DNA of 64,000 nt from an uncultured Solirubrobacteraceae bacterium (GTDB taxonomy: Bacteria; Actinomycetota; Thermoleophilia; Solirubrobacterales; Solirubrobacteraceae), in NCBI GenBank assembly GCA_964588985.1, contig CAZPQW010000019.1:1-64000 (forward strand), read 5' to 3'. How positions within the stretch are numbered: position 1 is the stretch's first letter; every line of letters starts with the position of its first letter. A program made the position numbers and the translations under genes. The notes beneath the pieces are model-generated. The model saw nothing but the letters and a program-made list of their open reading frames with translations, was not told the DNA's origin and made no database searches. This document shows positions 52,111 to 62,984 of the stretch, piece by piece.

Positions 52111-52212
52111 GGGCCGGATGGCGGCGCAATGCTGCGTCCTCGCTCGCTCATGTGCGTAAAGCACACTTCGCTCGCTGCGTCCTTGCCTTGCTTGCCCTCC
52201 GGCCCCTCAGAC
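52105..52212. repeat. 108-bp palindromic MITE/REP-like element
   Basis: Terminal IRs GTCTGAGGGCCGGA / TCCGGCCCCTCAGAC; inner GCTGCGTCCT and CGCTCGCT each twice; central GTGC-GTAAA-GCAC. Confidence 0.65.
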
Positions 52213-52228
52213 GGGCTGGGAGTGACTT

Positions 52229-52298
52229 TATGTCTATCGAGATAATGTAGTTCAACATAAGACTAAATATGTTGACAGGCATTATTTTGCTTGACATA
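52229..52298. promoter_or_regulatory. 70-bp nested AT-rich dyad upstream of ATPase
   Basis: TATGTC-N7-ATAATG-N4-TCAACATA-N8-TATGTTGA-N4-CATTAT-N7-GACATA. Confidence 0.75.
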
Positions 52299-52306
52299 TT
52301 TACTGA

Positions 52307-53467
52307 GTGGCGCGCTCCGAGGAGGACCTGAAGAACCCGTTCCGCTTCGGTGCGCTCGCGTTGGACGCGGCGTTCACCGACCGCGAGCGCGAGATCGAGG
52401 AGCTGAGCGCGGACATCCGCAACGGGCAGGACGTGGTCCTGTTCGCGCCGCGCCGCTACGGCAAGTCCTCACTGATCTGGCGCGTGGCGCAGCAGCTCGT
52501 GACCGAGGACGTGCTGGTGGCGCAGGTCGACCTGATGCGCACCCCCACGCGGGAGAAGCTCGCGGAGCGGCTCGCCAAGTCGATCCACGAGGAGATCGCC
52601 TCGCGCCTGTTTCGCACGCGCGAGCGGGTGCGCGTGTTCGCGGGCCTGCGGATCAAACCGACCGTGACCGTCGACCCGGACGACGGCTCGCTGTCGTTCA
52701 GCTTCGAAGCGCGCGCCGACCGGCAGGACATCGACGCGACGCTCGAAGGGCTCCTCGCCCTGCCGGGGCGTCTGGCCGCGGAGCGCAGACGGTCGGTGGC
52801 GCTGGTGTTCGACGAGTTCCAGGAGGTCGTGGACATCGACCCCGGGCTGCCGAAGCTGATGCGCTCGGTCTTCCAGGAGCAGCCGGAGGTCGCCCACGTG
52901 TACCTCGGCAGCCGCCGGCACATGATGGAGCGGATCTTCAACGACGAGAACGAGCCGTTCTGGCGCAGCGCGAAGCAGGTCGAGCTCGGCCCGATCCCCG
53001 TGGATCTGTTCGCTCGCTATGCGATCGCGCGGTTCGCCGACACCGCGAAGGAGCTGGAGCAGAACACCTGCGAGCGCGTGCTCGAGCTGACGGGAGGCCA
53101 TCCTTACGGCACGCAGGAGGCGCTGTACTTCCTGTGGGAGGAGACCCCCGCGGGAGGAATCGCCGAAGCGGAGCGCCTGGAGCAGGCGATCGACGCGCTG
53201 CTGCGCTCCGAGCACTCGCACTTCAGCCTGCTGTGGTCGCGGGCCGCCGCGGCGCAGCGCCGCGTGCTGCAGGCACTCTCCGCCGAGCAGCCCGGACGCC
53301 CCCTCAGCAGCGACTACCGCCTGCGCCACGCGCTGCCGTCGACCGCGACGGTGCAGACAGCCCTGAACGCGCTCGGCGCGGCGGAAGTGATCGAGCGGGT
53401 CGAGCGCGGCGAGTACCGCATCGCCGAGCCGTTCCTCGCGGAATGGATCGCGCGCAACGAGAGCTAG
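52307..53467 (+). CDS. AAA+/STAND-like ATPase (archaeal-ATPase type) with C-terminal wHTH
   Basis: NPF.FG, APRRYGKSS Walker A, VFDEFQ Walker B, GS, TGGHP, Y.I.EPF. Confidence 0.85.
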   Translation: MARSEEDLKNPFRFGALALDAAFTDREREIEELSADIRNGQDVVLFAPRRYGKSSLIWRVAQQLVTEDVLVAQVDLMRTPTREKLAERLAKSIHEEIASRLFRTRERVRVFAGLRIKPTVTVDPDDGSLSFSFEARADRQDIDATLEGLLALPGRLAAERRRSVALVFDEFQEVVDIDPGLPKLMRSVFQEQPEVAHVYLGSRRHMMERIFNDENEPFWRSAKQVELGPIPVDLFARYAIARFADTAKELEQNTCERVLELTGGHPYGTQEALYFLWEETPAGGIAEAERLEQAIDALLRSEHSHFSLLWSRAAAAQRRVLQALSAEQPGRPLSSDYRLRHALPSTATVQTALNALGAAEVIERVERGEYRIAEPFLAEWIARNES

Positions 53468-53594
53468 CGCGCTCTCGTCGACCGTCGCCCCGCAATCACA
53501 CGGACCGTATTTTCACCGGATTGGACGGTGCGTTCTCGGGCTTAAGCTGGACGGCCAGCCGACCAATTGTGGCCGTTTGCAGGAATAACGAGGG

Positions 53595-53624
53595 TTGACT
53601 ACAGTGTCCCGCCTGTGGTACCGT
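53595..53624 (+). promoter_or_regulatory. Candidate sigma70 promoter for the secreted-protein cluster
   Basis: TTGACT-N18-TACCGT with TGn extended -10; implies a leader of about 270 nt. Confidence 0.5.
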
Positions 53625-53901
53625 CGCCGGGACATGATGTCAAGCGTCGCACGGGGAATGGAACGCCCAGACCTCCGAAACCAAGCGATCCGCCTTCGGT
53701 GGGTTGGGATCGGAGTGTCCAGACGCGGCTTCAGGCTTGACCTTGACGCAGGCGATGTTTTCTGCCAAGGTCGGGCACACAGCACCATTGACATTAGTTC
53801 TGTCGATGGCTACGACTGGCTCGGGACGTCTCTGTCCTGAGGAGGGGACATAAAGGGTCGGTCGATCTAACCCTAGAGGGAATCAAAGGAGCGGTGGATA
53901 G

Positions 53902-54675
53902 ATGACACGCATCAAGATCATGGGGCTCAGCCTCGTCGCGGTGTTCGCGATGGCCGCGATGGCCGCATCGAGCGCGTCGGCCACGCCGACGTTCTACGAA
54001 TGTGCGAAGGCAGCCAAGGTAGGCAAATTCTACACTGGCAAATACAACGACAAAAACTGCACCGAAGTCAACGGCAAATCCGAAGGTAAATACGAACTCA
54101 AAGAAGGCGTTGGCAAAGGCAAGGTCTTCAAGGGCAAGGGCGCAGCCGCCGTTCTGCACACGCCCGCCGTCGGTGGAGAAGTGACCTGCAAAGGCAGCAA
54201 GGACGAAGGTAAGAACACTCTGACGGGCCAGAAGGAAGTCAAAGTGACCTTCACCGGCTGCGCCAGCCTCGGTAAAACCTGCAACTCCGTAGGCGCGAAA
54301 TCAGGCGAAATCAAAACCAACCCGCTGGCCGGCACGCTCGGCTACATCTCCGCGACTGGCCCCAAAGTGGGCGTCAGCCTCACGGGTGAAGCTGGCAAAC
54401 CGTCCGCTGAATTCGCATGTGGAACGGGCGCAGGCTCGCTGAACATCGTCACCACCGGCGCCGTCATCGGCGAAATCACGGGTGACATCAACAAAATCTC
54501 GAAGGAAGCAACCGACGCGTTCACTGTCACGGGCGAAGGTTTCCAGACGGTGACCAGCTTCGAAGGTGGACCGCTGGAAGTCCTCGAGACGAGCATCAAC
54601 GGTTCGCCTAACTTCGAATCAGGCGAGCAGACGACGACCCTGAACAAGGGCGAAGCACTCGAGATCAAAGCGTAG
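53902..54675 (+). CDS. Secreted Cys-rich beta protein, paralogue A (putative major fibre/surface subunit)
   Basis: AAGGAG RBS; Sec signal ending ASA; 6 Cys; C-terminal GEALEIKA. Confidence 0.85.
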   Translation: MTRIKIMGLSLVAVFAMAAMAASSASATPTFYECAKAAKVGKFYTGKYNDKNCTEVNGKSEGKYELKEGVGKGKVFKGKGAAAVLHTPAVGGEVTCKGSKDEGKNTLTGQKEVKVTFTGCASLGKTCNSVGAKSGEIKTNPLAGTLGYISATGPKVGVSLTGEAGKPSAEFACGTGAGSLNIVTTGAVIGEITGDINKISKEATDAFTVTGEGFQTVTSFEGGPLEVLETSINGSPNFESGEQTTTLNKGEALEIKA

Positions 54676-54723
54676 TGATCCTGCCGCCAATGCTCCGCTC
54701 TGGAGCAGGCAGCTAGGTGAGTT

Positions 54724-54762
54724 GGCTTGTGGGGCTCCATTCGTGGAGCCCCACAAGTCTTT
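54724..54762 (+). terminator. Strong hairpin (terminator or mRNA stabiliser) after paralogue A
   Basis: GGCTTGTGGGGCTCCA-TTCG-TGGAGCCCCACAAGTC followed by TTT. Confidence 0.75.
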
Positions 54763-54842
54763 AAGCAGCAGCTCGGCACGCAATCAGCGGGTTCGGGTAT
54801 GGGCACCCTGTTGTGTGGGCAACTCAAGGGGAGGGCATACAG

Positions 54843-55601
54843 ATGCGACGGATGAGGATCGTCGGGCTCAGCACGCTCGCAGCACTGGCAGTGGCCGCGA
54901 TAGTGGCCGCGGGTGCATCGGCCGCGCCGACGTACTACGAATGCGCGAAAACGGCCAAAGGGGTTGGCAAATACCTGGTCGGCTGCACCGAAGAAGCCGC
55001 GGAAGGGGCGGGCACGTACGAAATCCAGGAAGGGATCGGCAAAGGCAAAGCGTTCAAAGGCAAAGGCGGAGCGCTGATCTTCCACATCCCGGCGAACGGC
55101 GGCGAATTCACGTGCAAAGCAAGCACCGAAGAAGGTCACTACACGGTCACCGGCCAGGAAAAAGTCAAAATCACGATCACCGGCTGCGAGATCCTCGGCA
55201 AAACCTGCCAGACGGCTGGTGCCAAATTGGGCGAAGTCAAAACGAACTCGCTCTCGGGATCCCTTGGCTATATCTCCGCCGTTGGGCCCAAAATAGGTAT
55301 CGCCCTAGCCGGTGAAGAAGGTACCCCGTGGGCCGTATTCGAATGCGGGAGCGGTGCCGGGACACTGCACTTCGTCGTCACGAGTGCTGTCATCGGCGAA
55401 CTCACCGGCGACGTCAACCACTTCGGCAAAGAAGTCACGAAGGCGTACACCGTGACCGGTGGAGGCTTTCAGACGGTCGCACGGTTCGAAGGTGGCCCGC
55501 TGCAGGTTCTCGAATACTCCATCAACGAATCGATCGTGACCGAAATGGGTATCGCGACCACGACGGCCGCGAAAGGCGAAAACCTGGAGATCAAAGCCTA
55601 G
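54843..55601 (+). CDS. Secreted Cys-rich beta protein, paralogue B
   Basis: GGAGG RBS; Sec signal ending ASA; colinear with paralogue A (PT.YECAK, GKGK.FKGKG, TGC..LGKTC, LGYISA.GPK, FEGGPL, LEIKA). Confidence 0.85.
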   Translation: MRRMRIVGLSTLAALAVAAIVAAGASAAPTYYECAKTAKGVGKYLVGCTEEAAEGAGTYEIQEGIGKGKAFKGKGGALIFHIPANGGEFTCKASTEEGHYTVTGQEKVKITITGCEILGKTCQTAGAKLGEVKTNSLSGSLGYISAVGPKIGIALAGEEGTPWAVFECGSGAGTLHFVVTSAVIGELTGDVNHFGKEVTKAYTVTGGGFQTVARFEGGPLQVLEYSINESIVTEMGIATTTAAKGENLEIKA

Positions 55602-55644
55602 GAGATCGCCTCGACGCGTGCCATAGGGGGCGCGGGGTCGGGCG

Positions 55645-55690
55645 ACGCGGCATGTGGAGATCGTGATGCCAGGTCCTCCACATGCCGCGT
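55645..55690 (+). terminator. 15-bp perfect inverted repeat after paralogue B
   Basis: ACGCGGCATGTGGAG...CTCCACATGCCGCGT. Confidence 0.6.
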
Positions 55691-55747
55691 GCGCTCAGAC
55701 GCCGATCGGCCGTTTGCGATGGCGAACAGAGACGCGATGGTTCTCCC

Positions 55748-55775
55748 TTGACAAGCGGCAAGCGGGCACTAGACT
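55748..55775 (+). promoter_or_regulatory. Candidate sigma70 promoter
   Basis: TTGACA-N16-TAGACT. Confidence 0.55.
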
Positions 55776-55800
55776 GCCTGCAGGGATGAGGGAGACGACG

Positions 55801-58800
55801 ATGAGCGACGCTGGCGGCGCTGGCGCTCAACTGCAGATGTCACGCCGCGCAAGAAGCGCCGTGCTCGGGATGCTGGGTGCGTGTGCGATCGGATCGTTGC
55901 TCATGAGTGCGCCTGCGCTCGCCCTCATCCAGCGCGGGCATGTCTTCAGTCCGTCCGCGTCGTTCGGCAGCAGCGGCTCCGGTGAAGGCCAGCTGTCGAG
56001 CCCGTCGGCCGTCGCCGTCAGCGAAGTGGGGGTCGCGGCGGGCGATGTGTACGTCGCCGATCGCGGCAACAACAGAGTCGAGCAGTTCGACTCATCGGGC
56101 AAATTCGTAGCTGCATGGGGCTGGGGCGTGAAGGACGGCGAAAAAGAAACCGAGGTCTGCACGAGCGGAGAAGGCTGCAAACCCGGTCTCGCGGGCGCGG
56201 GCAAAGGAAGCGAAGGCTTCCATCTCGGCAAAGGCCAGATCGTCTCGCCGATCGCGATCGCCGTGGACAACTCGAAATCCGCCTCGGCCGGCGACGTTTA
56301 CGTGGTGGCTAGCGTCGTGCCGGAAAAGTCCTATGTGGACAAGTTCGGACCGAATGGCGAATACATCCGTCAGCTCACGAAGAAAGAAGAAACCGAATTC
56401 AACGGTCGCGTGGAGGGCGTGGCGGTCGATGGCAACGGTGTGGTGTGGGTCGATTGGAGCGAACAGGAGATCACCAACTTCACCGGTGCGGAACCGAACA
56501 AACGCGTGAACAAAGAAGTGGAACTCGAATCGGGTGTCGGCAACCTCCGGCCGGGTCTGGCGGCGGACTCCAGCGGGCATCTGTACGTGAACTCCGAACC
56601 GGCTGAACTCTTCGAACAGGGCACGGAAGGCACCAGTGCCGAAGAAGGCACGGGCGAAGGCGGCGAAGAACCGTGCGAAGCGTCCCCCTGCTACGCCTCG
56701 AAGCTCGCCATGACGGGCGAAGAACCGGGCGCCGTGCTGACCTTGCACATGAACCACCAGAACACAAGCGGCATCGCTGCTGACCTTGGCACGAACGACG
56801 TCTACGTCGACAACCTCACGAGCGTGACCTCGTACAGCTCGACGGGACGGACGATCGAGCGCTTTGGCACAGGCGACCTGACGCACGCCGCCGGTCTCGC
56901 CGTTCACGCAGGCGACGGCGACGTCTACGTCGCGGACTCCGCGACGGGCAAAATCGATGTCTTCGTTCCCGAACCCGCCGCTGCCCCGAACGTCGACGAA
57001 ATATCGGTCGGGAAGATCACGACCACAACGGCCGAACTCGGTGCCGAGGTCGACGCCAAAGGGGCCGAAACGACCGTCACCTTCCAATACGGCACCTCGA
57101 GCTGCTCGGGAGGGTCGTGCGTGTCCGTCCCAGCGTCCGAACCGACGATCCCGACGAGCTTCGGCGACCGCAGCAGGAGCATTCCGCTGGAAGGTCTCAT
57201 CGCTGGCACCACCTACCACTACCGGGTCATCGCCAAAAACTCCTTCGGCACCTTGACGAGCGAAGAACGCACGTTCACGACGCAGTCCGCGACGTCGTTT
57301 GCGCTGCTCGACGGGCGGGGCTGGGAGCAGGTCTCGCCGTCCGCCAAGAACGGCGCAGGATTCGAATCGATCGCCAAGGAAGGCGGCGTGATCCAGGCAT
57401 CCGTGGAAGGCAGCGGCATCACGTTCGTTGGCACGGGGCCGGACGAAGTCGAAACGGAAGGCAACCGCAGCCCGGAATTCACACAGATCCTCGCCAATCG
57501 CGTGACCAACGGCGAAGGCAAGGCTGAATGGATCTCCAAGGACATCAACACGCCGAGCGACACCGCCACCGGGATTGAAGCTGGCAAGGCGCCGGAGTAC
57601 CAGGCCTTCTCGCCCGACCTCTCAGCCGCGATCGTCAGGCCCAAGTCGCCCGAACCGCTGCTTTCCGAAGAAGCCTCGGAAGTCACGCCGTATCTGCGCG
57701 AAAACGCGCACTGCGGGCCCGTGCCCTCGGCCTGCTACAAGCCGCTGGTAACAGGCAAGGAAGGCTATGCAAACGTGCCTTCGGGCACGAAATTCGGCGG
57801 CACCGTGAGCCGCGGACTCCAGCTTCTGTCGACGGAACCCGACCTGCGTCACGTTGTCCTGCAGTCGGAAGTCCCGCTCACCGAAGAACCGGCCGCGGCC
57901 GGTCCAAACCTGTACGAGTGGAGCGAAGGCCATCTCCAGCTGGTCAACGCGCTGCCGGGCGCCGGCGGCCCTGCGGTGGCGGCGAAGCTCGGTACGGATA
58001 ACAACGGCGTCAGGCACGCGCTCGCCGACGGCGGTGCAAGGGTCTTCTGGACCGCCTCGACGGACGTCCCGCTCGAAGGAAGTCAGCGCCTCTACGTCCG
58101 CGACATGGTCAAGGAAGAAACCCTGCGGCTCGACATGCCCCAGGAAGGCGTCAAAGAACAGACCTCCGAAGGAGCTGGCTTTGCCGCCGCCAACGCGGAA
58201 GGCTCGCGGGTGTTCTTCACCGACGTCGAACCGCTGACCCCTGGCGCGCGGGCCTCGCGCGAAGCGGGAGGCCCAGACCTGTACGCGTGCGACATCGGCG
58301 AACAGGCGGGCAAACTGACGTGCTCGCTGCACGACCTGACCGAAGACACCGAAGCCGGTGGCGAAACGGCTGACGTCCAGGGCACCGTGCTCGGGGAGAG
58401 CGAAGACGGCTCGACGGTTTACTTCGTCGCAAACGGGGTGCTCGACAAAACCGCCAACGCGCAGAGCGAAAAAGCCACACCCGGCGAATGCGAACTCGAC
58501 AACCGAGGCTCGCAGGCGACCTGCAACCTCTACGTCGAGCACTACAACGCGGGCGAAGGCGCATGGGAAGCGCCGAGGTTCGTCGCGACGCTCTCAAACG
58601 AAGACGAACCGGACTGGTACAGCTTTGGCCACGGCGGAGGTCTGACGGAAATGACCTCCCGCGTCTCGCCGAACGGCCGCTACCTGTCGTTCATGTCCGA
58701 GCGGAGCCTGACGGGGTACGACAACCGCGACGTCAACAGCGGCGCTCTCGACGAGGAGGTCTTCCTCTACGACACGAGCAGCGGCAAGCTCGTGTGCGCC

Positions 58801-59586
58801 TCGTGCGACCCGACGCAGGGCCGACCGACGGGTGTCTTCGACACTGGGGAAGTCAGCGAAGAAGGCTTGGGGCTGCTCGTGGATCGCCCGGAAACCTGGG
58901 GCGGACGGTGGCTTGCCGGCAGCGTCCCCGGGTGGACCCCGGTGAGCGAGAACCGCTCCACGTATCAGTCGCGCTACCTGTCCGACAGCGGCAGGCTGTT
59001 CTTCAACAGCGCCGACCAGCTCGTCCCAGCAGACACGAACTCCAAGGAGGACGTCTACGAGTACGAGCCCGCGGGTCTCGGCTCGTGCGCCAGCGAAACG
59101 GGCTGTGTCGGGCTCCTCTCCTCCGGCAGGTCGGAAAAGGAATCTGCGTTCCTGGACGCGAGCGTCACGGGCAACGACGTGTTCTTCCTCACCGCTGGCG
59201 CGCTCGTCGCGGGCGACGCCGACACGAACTTCGATGTATACGACGCGCGAGTCTGCGGGCCGGGTGGCTGTGTGTCTTCGAGCAGCGAATCGAGCGCGAC
59301 GTGCCAGGAAGTCGAAACCTGCCGTCCGGCGGCCCCCACCGAGCCGGTGTTCTCGAGTCCGGCGACCACGGCCCCTTCCGGCTCCAGCAACCTCACGCCT
59401 TCCCCGCCCGTGAAAACCCCGGTCAAAGTGGTCGTCAAACCGACCCGCACGCAACTGCTCGCGAAGGCGCTGAAGGCCTGCAAGAAGAACAAGAGCAAGC
59501 ACAGGCGAGCGGTTTGCGAAAGGGCCGCGCGTAAGAAGTACGCCGCCAAGAAGGCGAGCAAGAGCACGCGCAGGAGAGGTCGATGA
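55801..59586 (+). CDS. Large secreted protein: NHL beta-propeller, FN3-like domain, second propeller, Pro/Ser linker, basic Cys-pair tail
   Basis: Signal ending ALA; GSGEGQLSSP..VAV/VYVADRGNNRV NHL repeats; LIAGTTYHYRVIAKN FN3; S.DG..V.F repeats. Confidence 0.85.
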   Translation: MSDAGGAGAQLQMSRRARSAVLGMLGACAIGSLLMSAPALALIQRGHVFSPSASFGSSGSGEGQLSSPSAVAVSEVGVAAGDVYVADRGNNRVEQFDSSGKFVAAWGWGVKDGEKETEVCTSGEGCKPGLAGAGKGSEGFHLGKGQIVSPIAIAVDNSKSASAGDVYVVASVVPEKSYVDKFGPNGEYIRQLTKKEETEFNGRVEGVAVDGNGVVWVDWSEQEITNFTGAEPNKRVNKEVELESGVGNLRPGLAADSSGHLYVNSEPAELFEQGTEGTSAEEGTGEGGEEPCEASPCYASKLAMTGEEPGAVLTLHMNHQNTSGIAADLGTNDVYVDNLTSVTSYSSTGRTIERFGTGDLTHAAGLAVHAGDGDVYVADSATGKIDVFVPEPAAAPNVDEISVGKITTTTAELGAEVDAKGAETTVTFQYGTSSCSGGSCVSVPASEPTIPTSFGDRSRSIPLEGLIAGTTYHYRVIAKNSFGTLTSEERTFTTQSATSFALLDGRGWEQVSPSAKNGAGFESIAKEGGVIQASVEGSGITFVGTGPDEVETEGNRSPEFTQILANRVTNGEGKAEWISKDINTPSDTATGIEAGKAPEYQAFSPDLSAAIVRPKSPEPLLSEEASEVTPYLRENAHCGPVPSACYKPLVTGKEGYANVPSGTKFGGTVSRGLQLLSTEPDLRHVVLQSEVPLTEEPAAAGPNLYEWSEGHLQLVNALPGAGGPAVAAKLGTDNNGVRHALADGGARVFWTASTDVPLEGSQRLYVRDMVKEETLRLDMPQEGVKEQTSEGAGFAAANAEGSRVFFTDVEPLTPGARASREAGGPDLYACDIGEQAGKLTCSLHDLTEDTEAGGETADVQGTVLGESEDGSTVYFVANGVLDKTANAQSEKATPGECELDNRGSQATCNLYVEHYNAGEGAWEAPRFVATLSNEDEPDWYSFGHGGGLTEMTSRVSPNGRYLSFMSERSLTGYDNRDVNSGALDEEVFLYDTSSGKLVCASCDPTQGRPTGVFDTGEVSEEGLGLLVDRPETWGGRWLAGSVPGWTPVSENRSTYQSRYLSDSGRLFFNSADQLVPADTNSKEDVYEYEPAGLGSCASETGCVGLLSSGRSEKESAFLDASVTGNDVFFLTAGALVAGDADTNFDVYDARVCGPGGCVSSSSESSATCQEVETCRPAAPTEPVFSSPATTAPSGSSNLTPSPPVKTPVKVVVKPTRTQLLAKALKACKKNKSKHRRAVCERAARKKYAAKKASKSTRRRGR

Positions 59587-62500
59587 CGAGCGCTCGCTCT
59601 CGCGGTCGACGGCTCCTCGGTCTCCTCGTGGCCCTGTGTTCGAGCGTGACGCTCGTGGCGGCGTTCGGCGCCGCGCCGGCACTCGCGGCGGGATCGTGGT
59701 GGAGCCTGACCTCCAGTGCGGCGCCGACGAACCTGTCGCCGACAGAAGAAGGCCAGATACTCGTGATGGCCACCAACCGCGGTTATGCGGACGCGAAAGC
59801 CAGCGCCGGACACCCGCTCAAGGTGATAGACCACCTGCCGGTCGGGCTCGAAGTCGGTGCCGAAGGCGCGCGGGCCGTGTTCCTCAGCCTTCCGATCAGC
59901 TGTCCGGTGGCGACCGGACAGACCGTTGTGTGCGAACTGCCACAGGCGGTCCCCGCGGGGGAAGACCTGGAAATCAAAATCGGAGTGAAGGCAACGGTTC
60001 CCAGCGGTACGACCTTGAGCAACGAACTCGTGATCGAAGGCGGCGAAGGCCAAGCGGTCACGCCGCCTGTGAAAGCTCCGGTGCGCGTGGACAGCGCCGC
60101 GACCCAGTTCGGTGTCGAAAAGTACGAACTGAAGCCGGAAGGCGAAGACGGTTCCGTCGACGCGCAGGCCGGCTCTCACCCGTTCCAGCTCACGACCACG
60201 TTCAACCTCAACAAGACGATCGAATTCAACACCAACTACAAACACCTCGAAGCGACCGCTCCGATCCTCCCTCGCGATCTGCGCTTCGTGCTGCCGCCAG
60301 GCCTGCTCGGCAACATCACGGTCGTGCCTCAGTGCTCGGGCGTCGACTTCGCCACGATCGGCCAGGAGGACATCAACCTGTGTCCCTCCGACACCGCCAT
60401 CGGCACCGCGCGAGTGACGATCAACGAACCTACGGTGTTCGGAGGTGCGCTCACCGAAGCGGTCCCGGTCTTCAACCTGGCGCCCGAAAAAGGCGAACCC
60501 GCCCGCTTCGGTCTCGAGATCGACAAAGTGCCCGTCGTCTTCAACACCGCTGTGCGAACCGGCAGCGACTACGCCGTCGAAGTCAGCGTCGACAACGCGT
60601 CGCAGGCCGCGGCGCTGCTCAGCACCGAGGTGACGTTCTGGGGTGTGCCCGGGGACCCTCGTCACGACCAGTCACGTGGATGGGAGTGCATCGGTCACGG
60701 GCACTTCGTCGCCAAAGCCGAACCGGCGACGCCATGCGAACCGCTGGAAGAAACCAGCCCGCCGGCCTTCCTCACGCTGCCGACGTCCTGCTCGAGCACG
60801 CCGGTCACCACGGTCACCGGCGACTCGTGGCCCACCGGCCCGAGCCGCACCGTGAGCCAGCTTGCCGCCAGCTACGAATTCCCATCGGCGCTTCAGAACT
60901 GCGACCTGCTCGGCTTCTCACCCGCGATCAGCGTGGAACCGGAAACCCATGCGGCGAACGAACCGAGCGGACTGGCTGTCGACGTGACGGTGCCGCAGGC
61001 GTCGACGATCTCCGCCACCGAACTGGCCGAGGCCGACGCCAAGGAAGCCACCGTGGCGCTGCCCGCGGGCGTGCTCGCGAGTCCCGGCGCCGCCAACGGG
61101 CTGCAGGCGTGCTTCACCACGAGCATCGGTCTCGAAGCCGGGTTCTCCGAACCGAGCCAGCTCGAAAACGACCACTTCAACGCGGGCGCGGCGTCATGCC
61201 CCGACGGCTCGAAGATCGGCACCGCGGTGATCGAAACGCCGCTGCTCAAAAACCCGCTCGCTGGTTTCGTCTATCTCGCCAACCAGGACACGAACCTGGT
61301 GGAAGAAAAGCTGGTGCTGTATCTGGTCGCCGAAGACCCGGTCTCGGGCGTGCGCGTGAAGCTCGCGGGCGACGTGCACGTGGATCCGACGACCGGCCAG
61401 CTCGTCTCGACGTTCAAGAACACCCCGCCCGAGCCGTTCTCCGAGCTGAAGCTGAGCTTCTTCGGTGGAGGCCGCGCGTCGCAGTCAACGCCCGCGCAGT
61501 GCGGTACCTACACGACCCACGCGACGTTCGTCCCCTGGTCGGGGACCTCGCCGGCGCCCGTGTCCTCGAGCTTCGAAATCACCTCCGGACCGAAGGGCAC
61601 GGCCTGCGCCAACCCGCAGCCGTTCGCTCCGTCCTTCCAGGCCGGCTCGGTCGACAACCGGGCGGGCGCGTTCACGAACTTCTCGCTGACGATCGGCCAC
61701 GCCGACACCGACCAGTGGCTGCAGGCGCTGACCGTCCACCTGCCGTCGGGCGTCGCCGCGCTGCTCTCCACGGTCACGCCGTGCCCCGAACCCGCCGCGG
61801 GTCAGGAATGGGCGTGCGGGCCGGAAAGCCTGATCGGGCACTCGACCGCGAGCTCGGGCCTCGGCGAAGACCCGTTCACGCTCGGGGGCAGCGTGTATCT
61901 CACCGTGGGCTACGACAAAGCGCCGTTCGGCCTGCTGGTGGTCACGCCCGCGGACGCCGGCCCGTTCCACCTCGGCAACGTGGACGTGCGCTCGCGCATC
62001 GAAGTCGACCCGACCACGGCGGCGGTGACGATCGTCAGCGATCCGTTCCCGACATACGTGAAGGGCGTGCCGGTGCAGCTCAAACAGATCAACGTGACCG
62101 TCGATCGCCCCGGCTTCGAGTTCAACCCCACCAACTGCAACCAGATGGCGATCACCGGATCTCTCAGCAGTACTGGGGGGCTCAGCGAGTCGGTCTCCTC
62201 GCCCTTCCAGGTCGCAAACTGCGCGACGCTCCCGTTCAGCCCGAAGCTGACCGCGAGCACACAGGCGCAGGCGAGCAAAGCGAACGGAGCGGCGCTCAAC
62301 GTCAAGGTCGAATCGACGGGGCTCGGACAGGCGAACATCGCGAAGGTCGACCTGCAGCTGCCGGTCGCGCTGCCGTCGCGCCTGTCGACGATCCAGAAAG
62401 CGTGCCTCGAAGTGGTCTTCAAGGCCAACCCGGCCGCGTGTGACGAAGGCTCGAACATCGGCTACGCCACGATCCACACGCCGGTACTCAAGGACCCGCT

Positions 62501-62984
62501 CACCGGGCCCGCGTATCTCGTCGCCAAGGGCGGCGCGGCGTTCCCCGACGTGGAGTTCGTGCTCCAGGGCGAAGGGATCCTGCTGATCCTCGACGGCAAG
62601 ACGGACATCAAAAAAGGCATCACCTACTCGCGCTTCGAAGCCACCCCCGACGCGCCCTTCACGACCTTCGAAACGGTCCTGCCGACCGGGCCGCACTCCG
62701 CGCTCACAGCTTACGTCCCCGCCAGCCGCAACTTCAACGTGTGCGGCACGAAGCTGGAAATGCCCACCGAAATCGTCGGCCAGAACGGCGCGGTGATCAG
62801 GCAGACCACGAACATCGTCGCCAACGGCTGCGCCGCCTCTCACCCGCTTACCCGCGCCCAGCTGCTCGCGAAGGCGCTCAAGACGTGCAGGAAGGCCAAG
62901 AAGAAGAGCAAGCGCGTCAGCTGCGAAAAGCAGGCCCGCAAGAAGTACGGGCCGAAGGCCAAGAAGGCGAAGAAGAAGCATTAA
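59583..62984 (+). CDS. Large secreted protein with four tandem Cys-containing beta domains and basic Cys-pair tail
   Basis: ATGA overlap; signal ending ALA; LP.G...C...C..S.IG motif repeated four times. Confidence 0.85.
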   Translation: MTSARSRGRRLLGLLVALCSSVTLVAAFGAAPALAAGSWWSLTSSAAPTNLSPTEEGQILVMATNRGYADAKASAGHPLKVIDHLPVGLEVGAEGARAVFLSLPISCPVATGQTVVCELPQAVPAGEDLEIKIGVKATVPSGTTLSNELVIEGGEGQAVTPPVKAPVRVDSAATQFGVEKYELKPEGEDGSVDAQAGSHPFQLTTTFNLNKTIEFNTNYKHLEATAPILPRDLRFVLPPGLLGNITVVPQCSGVDFATIGQEDINLCPSDTAIGTARVTINEPTVFGGALTEAVPVFNLAPEKGEPARFGLEIDKVPVVFNTAVRTGSDYAVEVSVDNASQAAALLSTEVTFWGVPGDPRHDQSRGWECIGHGHFVAKAEPATPCEPLEETSPPAFLTLPTSCSSTPVTTVTGDSWPTGPSRTVSQLAASYEFPSALQNCDLLGFSPAISVEPETHAANEPSGLAVDVTVPQASTISATELAEADAKEATVALPAGVLASPGAANGLQACFTTSIGLEAGFSEPSQLENDHFNAGAASCPDGSKIGTAVIETPLLKNPLAGFVYLANQDTNLVEEKLVLYLVAEDPVSGVRVKLAGDVHVDPTTGQLVSTFKNTPPEPFSELKLSFFGGGRASQSTPAQCGTYTTHATFVPWSGTSPAPVSSSFEITSGPKGTACANPQPFAPSFQAGSVDNRAGAFTNFSLTIGHADTDQWLQALTVHLPSGVAALLSTVTPCPEPAAGQEWACGPESLIGHSTASSGLGEDPFTLGGSVYLTVGYDKAPFGLLVVTPADAGPFHLGNVDVRSRIEVDPTTAAVTIVSDPFPTYVKGVPVQLKQINVTVDRPGFEFNPTNCNQMAITGSLSSTGGLSESVSSPFQVANCATLPFSPKLTASTQAQASKANGAALNVKVESTGLGQANIAKVDLQLPVALPSRLSTIQKACLEVVFKANPAACDEGSNIGYATIHTPVLKDPLTGPAYLVAKGGAAFPDVEFVLQGEGILLILDGKTDIKKGITYSRFEATPDAPFTTFETVLPTGPHSALTAYVPASRNFNVCGTKLEMPTEIVGQNGAVIRQTTNIVANGCAASHPLTRAQLLAKALKTCRKAKKKSKRVSCEKQARKKYGPKAKKAKKKH

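Follow-up and report, generated by a model that had tools for sequence, protein, structure and literature searches.

We analysed a window of 64,000 nt of DNA from an uncultured Solirubrobacteraceae bacterium (contig CAZPQW010000019.1, positions 1 to 64,000), in which four genes, here called A, B, C and D, had been proposed to encode a sortase-independent surface fibre or surface-layer (S-layer) system. All four open reading frames (ORFs) were found, co-oriented on the plus strand between 53.6 and 63.0 kb of the window. The reading that we favour, tentatively and at a little under even probability, is a sortase-independent surface-display locus that would be analogous, but not homologous, to WxL/Csc clusters.

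Gene A (53902..54675) encodes 257 aa, with a signal peptide at about residues 1-27 followed by a domain-only beta-barrel that has six invariant Cys and the end GEALEIKA. Its paralogue B (54843..55601; 252 aa from ATG 54843) has six Cys as in A, ends in GENLEIKA and is 60% identical to A over 258 columns (E 1e-88). Gene C (55801..59586; about 1261 aa from ATG 55801) encodes a signal peptide, an NHL beta-propeller, an fn3-like domain, a PD40-type propeller region, a Pro/Ser linker and a basic two-Cys tail. Gene D (59583..62984; 1133 aa) encodes a signal peptide, an N-terminal DUF11/CnaB/cohesin-like sandwich (residues 37-172), more beta-sandwich domains, among which there is an internal duplication, and a helical hairpin at the C-terminus; the protein has 23 Cys. 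The stop codon of C and the start codon of D overlap as ATGA (59583-59586), in keeping with the translational coupling predicted for these two large proteins. The gene starts listed initially were retained for A and D and were moved for B and C. Specifically, B most likely starts at ATG 54843, behind GGGGAGGG, which is far better than the listed GTG 54813, and the likeliest start of C is ATG 55801 (or 55837), not the listed GTG 55654, because these ATG codons lie downstream of a promoter-like site at 55748-55775.

Using regular expressions and a hydropathy scan, we found exactly one hydrophobic stretch in each of the four proteins, N-terminal and followed by an A-x-A-type site, which bears out the Sec signals originally predicted. 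The same scans revealed no later membrane segment and no LPXTG-type sorting signal near any of the four C-termini; the nearest LPXTG-like string, LAMTG at residue 351 of C, is distant from the C-terminus and lacks an adjoining hydrophobic segment. The single sortase match in the genome was on another contig (C13), and the locus itself contains neither an LPXTG signal nor a sortase gene. The neighbouring genes encode DegV, an Fe-S protein and an HhH-GPD glycosylase, and the locus contained no chaperone or usher, as had been noted before, and no other assembly machinery.

Fold, position and distribution of the A-type barrel

Protein A matched no Pfam or NCBIfam family at E <= 0.1, and B gave sub-threshold chance matches only. 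A word-indexed search with A returned 356 relatives, almost all of them unnamed, the few named ones being Solirubrobacteraceae bins; one of the 120 listed relatives (P0119) carried the automatic Joint Genome Institute (JGI) label 'type 1 fimbria pilin'. Among 50 relatives of A, six Cys were invariant and the end G-E-x-L-E-I-K-A was conserved. A and B are domain-only members of an undescribed beta-barrel family, and neither Pfam, NCBIfam nor the PDB yielded a relative of it.

The AlphaFold2 model of A, built from an alignment of its relatives, was a confident all-beta closed barrel (predicted local distance difference test, pLDDT, 91.6; predicted template-modelling score, pTM, 0.83). In this model the LEIKA stretch formed the end of A's own 19-residue last strand (238-256; block pLDDT 96-98), and the barrel, which is a prediction and not a solved structure, showed neither the groove or missing strand of donor-strand pilins nor an incomplete immunoglobulin (Ig) fold. 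These features argue against the earlier suggestion that A and B might polymerise through a donated LEIKA strand. A homodimer prediction with two copies of mature A (residues 28-257) scored 0.00 against a mark of 0.42, a value that counts as evidence neither way.

A Foldseek search of the PDB with the model of A returned nothing at E <= 0.001, and an exhaustive structural aligner ranked eight-stranded barrels first, among them a Legionella porin (Z 10.1), OmpW (Z 9.9, root-mean-square deviation, rmsd, 3.3 over 140 residues), OprF (OprF-N) and OmpA (Z 9.6-9.8), and NspA. Overall, the matches to barrels of the outer-membrane protein (OMP) type had Z 9.3-10.1 over 127-147 residues, with rmsd 3.2-4.3 and identity of 7-13%, and represent fold resemblance only. 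In the ESM Atlas, feature matches of A were below 0.9, and the structure matches beyond its own family were again OMP barrels, at TM < 0.45. The matches from the structural aligner are what favours an outer-membrane, eight-stranded barrel of the OmpA/OmpW/OmpX kind, to which we assign a vanishingly small probability. Mature A is polar, with a grand average of hydropathy (GRAVY) of -0.31, 26 K+R, 25 D+E and no Trp, and its strands, such as GSKDEGKNT, have no lipid-facing belt as judged from the sequence; it also has six invariant Cys. Moreover, no Omp85/BamA was detected in the genome, which is 95.9% complete, while seven diderm controls scored. On account of the polar mature sequence and the missing Omp85, A is, as modelled, a soluble, disulfide-bearing barrel and not a membrane protein.

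Several secreted proteins encoded elsewhere in the same genome ended in an A-type barrel. These included an RCC1-propeller protein (contig C1, 5906-7978), an NHL-fn3 protein (contig C5, 120713-122779), a protein with a long Gly-rich region and fn3 ahead of the terminal barrel (contig C3, 76754-78751) and, on contig C16, a protein with an unknown N-domain; the barrel was also free-standing several times. In P0254, a relative of the Gly-rich protein, a match to the ALK/LTK glycine-rich domain had E 1e-10. We searched 1.84 billion cluster representatives (clusters at 50% identity) with a profile of the domain alone (A4, 23 sequences) and obtained 5148 matches at E <= 1e-3, including 1001 at E <= 1e-30. 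The best 150 of these 5148 comprised 68 stand-alone proteins (<= 310 aa), 14 tandem doublets, 65 longer proteins with a C-terminal barrel and three arranged otherwise. In the 65 longer proteins, which reached 2098 aa, the domain match ended within 12 residues of the C-terminus, so that this position held for 65 of the 68 longer non-tandem matches.

Pfam was applied to 62 of 64 long barrel proteins, and at least 30 of the 62 contained a propeller (RCC1 in 13, FG-GAP in 12, and NHL, PQQ, BNR, DUF5122 and lactonase in one each). Spacer domains were TIG (17), PKD (6) and fn3 (6); LamG, ALK-type Gly-rich, Big_3_5 and GDSL lipase domains also occurred, and 15 proteins had no Pfam family. One barrel cluster in the ESM Atlas had a Phosphoesterase domain. 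The recurring architecture was a signal peptide, a head, Ig-like spacers and the barrel, and every barrel member seen had an ordinary N-terminal signal peptide. The last residues were conserved among the 150 best matches, with LEIKA in 12, LELKA in 8 and I/V-N-x-V/A types ranking next.

These counts bear on whether A (with B) instead polymerises into a self-assembling surface structure, a fibre or an S-layer-like lattice, in which identical contacts would bring in the proteins with a C-terminal barrel, and C and D would serve as accessory adhesin or anchor. We consider this doubtful. The expression design would suit an abundant subunit, given a promoter belonging to A itself, a strong ribosome-binding site that is conserved and, past the end of the gene, a likewise conserved hairpin. 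Of the best 150 family members, 68 consist of the domain only, and the conserved strand at the extreme C-terminus could provide an interface. The logic of a shared domain also resembles that of the SLH or CWB2 S-layer families. Against it stand the modelled barrel, complete with its own C-terminal strand and free of any groove, and the lack of assembly machinery in the locus. A tandem A/B arrangement recurred in only one of 11 other syntenic loci, so that a heteropolymer is not conserved and the view of A and B as paired fibre subunits loses ground. For the most part, the A-type domain closes multidomain secreted proteins as a C-terminal module, which is not the behaviour of major pilins. A fibre requires subunits that complete one another, and the barrel is self-contained and C-terminal; the fibre reading is therefore not supported, and the locus, as far as the models indicate, is not a pilus operon.

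The composition of the long proteins likewise speaks to the alternative that the barrel is a ligand-binding module (lectin-like or carbohydrate-binding-module-like, or avidin-, lipocalin- or YceI-like) for plant or soil substrates, with A and B as soluble, freely secreted scavengers and C and D as unrelated neighbours. Soluble barrels, namely avidins, the lipocalin-like YceI/BcnA, TbpB and fHbp, were among the structural neighbours of A at Z 5-8, with the avidins and the TbpB/fHbp barrels at Z 5-7.5; some fusion partners are enzymes (GDSL lipase and the Phosphoesterase cluster), which are the usual company of substrate-binding modules; and the DNA comes from rhizosphere metagenomes. We nevertheless think it unlikely, because substrate-binding modules usually tolerate any position and the barrel does not, because its partners are mostly propellers and Ig-like spacers rather than enzymes, and because synteny of A, C and D in 11 of 12 loci argues against a chance neighbourhood.

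The barrel family was narrowly distributed. In an order-wide sample, a stand-alone barrel profile matched four of 151 genomes, all from the genus of the window (its own genome and three of three others); the 36 genomes that represented other genera of the family and the 111 that represented other families gave no match. Within a genus-level sample, 28 of 101 genomes had a barrel match at E <= 1e-40, and the highest number of copies in a single genome was 19. A broader profile found no match at E <= 1e-8 in 300 other Actinomycetota genomes, a sample that held no other genome of the genus. Thus, among the genomes sampled, the barrel seems to be confined to one Solirubrobacteraceae genus.

Expansion within one lineage, a strictly C-terminal position and conserved last residues would each be expected of an export or sorting signal, in which the barrel would be recognised by a processing or secretion step and removed or modified, comparable to the C-terminal domain of the type IX secretion system (T9SS) or to LPXTG/PEP-CTERM, with A and B as decoys or by-products. 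The likeness to the T9SS domain lies in the placement of the barrel at the extreme C-terminus of diverse secreted proteins (65 of 68); A had no Pfam match, and no Por_Secre_tail-type chain was among the structural matches listed, although no search for T9SS genes was made. We regard such a signal as very improbable, as the ordinary N-terminal signal peptides and the missing Omp85 imply that there is no second membrane to cross, domain-only proteins would have no cargo, and no candidate processing enzyme was conserved beside the genes.

Proteins C and D and the conserved locus

The domains of C, numbered after P0003, are NHL at about 100-450, fn3 at 450-550 and PD40 at 550-1230. C is the propeller protein of the original prediction: its NHL repeats matched Pfam at E 1.5e-7 and the TRIM71 and Thin NHL domains among PDB sequences at E 1e-14 to 3e-18, the PDB sequence matches of this region all being to eukaryotic NHL domains. 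The 680-residue region after fn3 gave a weak PD40 match in C itself and PD40 repeats in 12 of 14 aligned relatives, and had no PDB sequence match.

Protein D had no Pfam family, hence no recognised adhesive head, and no LPXTG, and its profile returned nothing beyond E 0.06 from PDB sequences. An internal repeat (residues ~394-623 versus 800-1085; 27% identity, E 5e-10) agrees with its earlier description as a tandem-repeat protein, and the AlphaFold2 model, from a 54-sequence alignment, was a string of beta domains (pLDDT 85.6, pTM 0.71). In a Foldseek search, PrgB Ig-like domains came first (E 8.4e-13), followed by mastigoneme, macroglobulin (MG) domains of alpha-2-macroglobulin/complement, integrin legs and the S-layer protein of the archaeon Nitrosopumilus. 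The N-domain (37-172) aligned at Z 10-13.5 to TTHA1873, to a CLIPPER domain, to cohesins and to three pilins, BcpA, RrgB and SpaD. The CLIPPER and pilin matches lay at Z 11-13.5, with the CnaB-type domains of the three pilins at Z 12.7, 11.4 and 11.2, respectively. As modelled, D resembles the stalks of surface proteins, that is, a rod of Ig-like domains.

The D family is large. Among the 8000 candidates scored in a word-indexed search, being those that shared most words with D, 7092 matched at E <= 0.001, and matches in the ESM Atlas were to unnamed Actinomycetota clusters only. Of the 151 genomes of the order, 78 contained relatives of D, including two unpublished genomes, and these 78 came from five of its six families. 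Giant frames of 5600 to 7223 aa in one family contained many copies of the D-type repeat unit (G016:C7, G066:C78, G041:C4, G031:C29 and G061:C2).

In the window's own genome (3.4 Mb), a C-like PD40 gene was followed by a D-like gene in 10 modules, including the A-D locus. Three of the 10 had an NHL-fn3 head on a D-like rod instead of the PD40 protein (C3:52429-56778, C20:3542-7864 and C6:19091-22891). The gene overlap, the repeated pairing and the swapping of heads argue that C and D act as a pair. The NHL-fn3 head is shuffled among three carriers, as it is found on the PD40 protein, on the D-like rod and on the A-type barrel (the contig C5 protein described above). D-like fragments or copies with in-frame stops were also noted (C3:45461-46299, C5:117185-118000 and C8:48800-51451) and are probably decaying paralogues.

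The bodies of C and D are acidic (isoelectric point, pI, 4.4 and 4.7, respectively), and both proteins end in the same Lys/Arg-rich, two-Cys stretch. The tail of C (59446..59583, plus strand) contains TRTQLLAKALKACKK followed by CERAARKKY, with a pI of 11.9 over the last 80 residues; that of D (62844..62981, plus strand) contains TRAQLLAKALKTCRK followed by CEKQARKKY and has a pI of 11.05. In the model of D, residues 1091-1103 and 1108-1122 of the tail formed a helix-turn-helix hairpin. Many Cys were invariant among the relatives of D. The basic two-Cys tail also ended fn3-rich and other proteins that are neither C nor D (C12:76116, C35:10884 and C8:53824). It behaves as a second portable C-terminal module; a regular-expression tally of tail-bearing proteins was swamped by Arg-rich wrong-frame ORFs in this GC-rich genome and is used for long ORFs only and qualitatively.

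To place the locus in context, we compared 16 kb around the 12 best relatives of A, from 11 other genomes of the genus. The order A-C-D was retained in 11 of the 12 related loci, the remaining one (L036) having A alone, which supports a conserved, sortase-independent unit whose proteins are secreted. In eight of the 11 syntenic loci, the NHL part of C was detectable, while one (L032) had a second tandem A and three had an extra, more distant A-like gene after D. The flanking genes, for the Fe-S protein on the upstream side and for HhH-GPD on the downstream side, were each present in nine of the 12 loci, and in nine of the 12 the unit lay between these two housekeeping genes. From these comparisons, the A-C-D unit is an inherited chromosomal locus with sharp borders. 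A and B matched no characterised family, and the genes of the locus co-occur in relatives, so that neither observation named in advance as refuting the first interpretation was made. As putative roles, those first suggested for C and D (adhesin, anchor or assembly factor) are plausible.

A candidate display system and its likeness to known ones

In the reading that we favour, A-D would be exported through Sec, stabilised by disulfides and held on or in the cell wall without a sortase. The barrel would be a surface-attachment or docking module, and free A and B, made in excess, would form a platform or partner for the barrel-bearing proteins. The basic helical-hairpin tails would hold C and D on anionic wall polymers or at the membrane surface, where C, with its two propellers, and D, a beta-sandwich rod, would work as a pair. 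The analysis shows how the genes are built, their export signals, predicted folds and family architectures, their synteny and copy number, and a lack of known anchors; surface retention, the roles of barrel and tail, and the stoichiometry are what we infer rather than demonstrate. The non-covalent surface reading draws on export without a known anchor, acidic bodies with basic tails, the C-terminal barrel module, the linkage of C and D, synteny and a logic like that of WxL systems.

WxL clusters combine a small WxL-only protein with an Ig-like partner and with a large protein in which N-terminal binding domains precede a WxL domain at the C-terminus (PMC10599100; PMC9772566; PMC1534035), and WxL/Csc proteins are exported by Sec, attach to the wall non-covalently and independently of sortase, and are linked to a plant-associated niche (PMC1534035; PMC10599100; PMC9772566). 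The A-D locus and the WxL/Csc clusters (CscA-D; Lactobacillales, Listeria and Bacillus) are alike in consisting of Sec-exported proteins only, in having an Ig-like partner and, in the reading that we favour, in a non-covalent retention independent of sortase. Both also combine a domain-only small protein with large proteins that bear the same C-terminal domain, although here this is so at the level of the genome and family, with the large forms outside the locus. Lactobacillus plantarum has several paralogous csc clusters, and the 10 C-D modules of the window's genome, its barrels in both stand-alone and C-terminal form, and its rhizosphere origin are parallels. Several differences separate the two. 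The Pfam WxL family (PF13731) had no match in A-D or in the genome, while a Lactococcus positive control scored; A has no Trp, so no WxL motifs, and its predicted closed barrel differs from the two-sheet models of WxL; no DUF916/DUF3324 Pfam match, membrane-anchored partner or LPXTG member was found in A-D; and C and D end in a basic helical tail in place of the barrel. With no WxL match, no Trp in A, a different predicted fold and no DUF916 partner, A-D are not members of the WxL family.

Other surface systems resembled the locus in single respects. Like the Gram-positive fibrillar adhesins and sortase pilins (PrgB, antigen I/II, BcpA, RrgB and SpaD), D is a long chain of Ig-like/CnaB/DUF11-type domains, but it has no LPXTG, pilin motif or nearby sortase, it ends in a Lys/Arg-rich two-Cys helical hairpin, it is always paired with a PD40-propeller gene, and it lacks a sequence-level PDB match. 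The order of a small abundant subunit, a hairpin, a second small paralogue and large proteins recalls chaperone-usher (type 1) fimbrial operons; unlike these, however, A-D had no Fimbrial Pfam match, A is modelled as a complete barrel, neither a chaperone nor an usher is present, and the missing Omp85 suggests that there is no outer membrane. In the SLH proteins of Bacillus and the CWB2/Cwp proteins of Clostridioides difficile, a wall-binding module is common to abundant structural and diverse surface proteins; no SLH or CWB2 Pfam match was found in A-D, which differ further in the single C-terminal barrel module.

Several points weigh against the display reading. The genes for the large barrel-bearing proteins lie outside the locus, and what C and D bear is the tail and not the barrel, so that synteny is the one tie between A and the C-D pair. 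A domain-only anchor without a passenger calls for an extra assumption, such as a platform, cap or competitor role, and nucleic acid, soil minerals or plant polymers are equally conceivable ligands of the basic tail. The fold matches of A are generic, with Z near 10 where a best Z of 7-8 is common background. Finally, the organism is known from rhizosphere metagenomes only.

A bolder form of the display reading, which we consider improbable as it stands, would make the barrel a new class of C-terminal surface-attachment domain of monoderm Actinomycetota, borne by thousands of propeller- or enzyme-bearing secreted proteins of one speciose soil genus. Free A and B would then be an abundant wall-bound platform, possibly a lattice, that docks these proteins and the tail-bearing C-D pairs, so that two undescribed anchors, barrel and basic hairpin, would provide complete sortase-independent display.

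Solirubrobacterales are abundant in soil and rhizosphere, and their cell surface is almost undescribed; our literature search, whose coverage excluded subscription journals, found no description of the barrel family, of C-D modules or of Solirubrobacterales surface proteins. New here are a barrel family of 5148 clusters outside Pfam, NCBIfam and the PDB, an order-wide family of rod-like D proteins that always have a propeller protein as their partner and number about ten per genome, and a basic two-Cys tail that may replace LPXTG anchoring. Should barrel and tail prove to be wall-attachment modules, they would explain the display of dozens of propeller-type binding proteins and could be put to use in surface display, in the labelling of uncultured cells and in the interpretation of metaproteomes. 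The negative outcome is useful as well, in that the locus does not look like a hidden pilus system.

Expression signals and surroundings

A promoter-like site of A was read from the sequence at 53595..53641 (plus strand), with TTGACT, an 18-nt spacer and TGG-TACCGT; next comes the palindrome GACATGATGTC (53631-53641), which lies some 270 nt ahead of the ATG. The palindrome (consensus GACATGA(T/G)GTC) lay directly after the -10-like box and recurred in 10 of 12 orthologous upstream regions, at 267-275 nt from the ATG in six of the 10 and at 298-379 nt in the other four. A TTGAC box and a TGnTAnnnT box were visible in nine of the 10 palindrome-bearing regions (the sequence of L033 was cut), and the pattern conserved in the aligned leaders was TTGACN, 17-18 nt and TGnTAnnnT. 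Within the window's genome, only one of four matches to the palindrome pattern, that at A, had the promoter context, and blastn of the A leader against this genome found no other similar leader. The palindrome looks like an operator for a regulator.

The leader of A had been described as structured, which holds in part. Conserved elements extend along its approximately 270 nt, among them a potential hairpin at 53736..53775 (plus strand; CTTGACCTTGACG ... CTGCCAAGGTCGGG) for which RNAalifold, run on nine leaders, gave a 12-pair helix. Most of these pairs were invariant and one had changed on both sides, so that the sequence is conserved and covariation does not show structure; the last 126 nt of the leader folded no better than shuffles (z -1.27). 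The strong ribosome-binding site claimed for A was present as a Shine-Dalgarno AAGGAG (53886..53891, plus strand), 10 nt before the ATG, and its A(A/G)GGAG core was kept in 12 of 12 aligned leaders.

Both predicted hairpins were recovered on the plus strand. The one after A (54726..54762) has a perfect GC-rich stem of 13-15 bp at 54726-54757, then TCTTT (z -5.85), and the one after B (approximately 55645..55691) a 15-bp stem (z -4.33); in each case, none of 200 shuffles folded as well. Across the window and 11 related loci, hairpins with differing stem sequences followed 13 of 14 A-type gene ends, and the 130 nt after the A-type stop had z <= -2.6 in 12 of the 14 (100 mononucleotide shuffles each). 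A promoter-like site, as expected before C, was found at 55748..55775 (plus strand) as TTGACA, 16 nt and TAGACT, with 10 of 12 consensus matches, and was the only sigma-70-like site in 53400-56000 (shuffle mean 0.5). In the same region, Rfam gave a chance-level match only (E 0.9). With its own promoter and strong ribosome-binding site for A, the hairpin after A and a separate promoter-like site for the coupled C and D, the layout would fit a stoichiometry of high A to low C and D, which we infer from this arrangement.

The region 52200-53590, which separates the A promoter from the Fe-S protein gene, held long overlapping ORFs and seems to be either a variable spacer or a gene particular to the species. 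One ORF (52291-53598) was considered as a fifth member of the locus and rejected, as it is an Arg-rich, apparently out-of-frame translation with no Pfam match that was kept in one of 12 loci. Among the sequencing runs listed for 53550-57500, none was of RNA and 24 were of DNA, mostly rhizosphere metagenomes.

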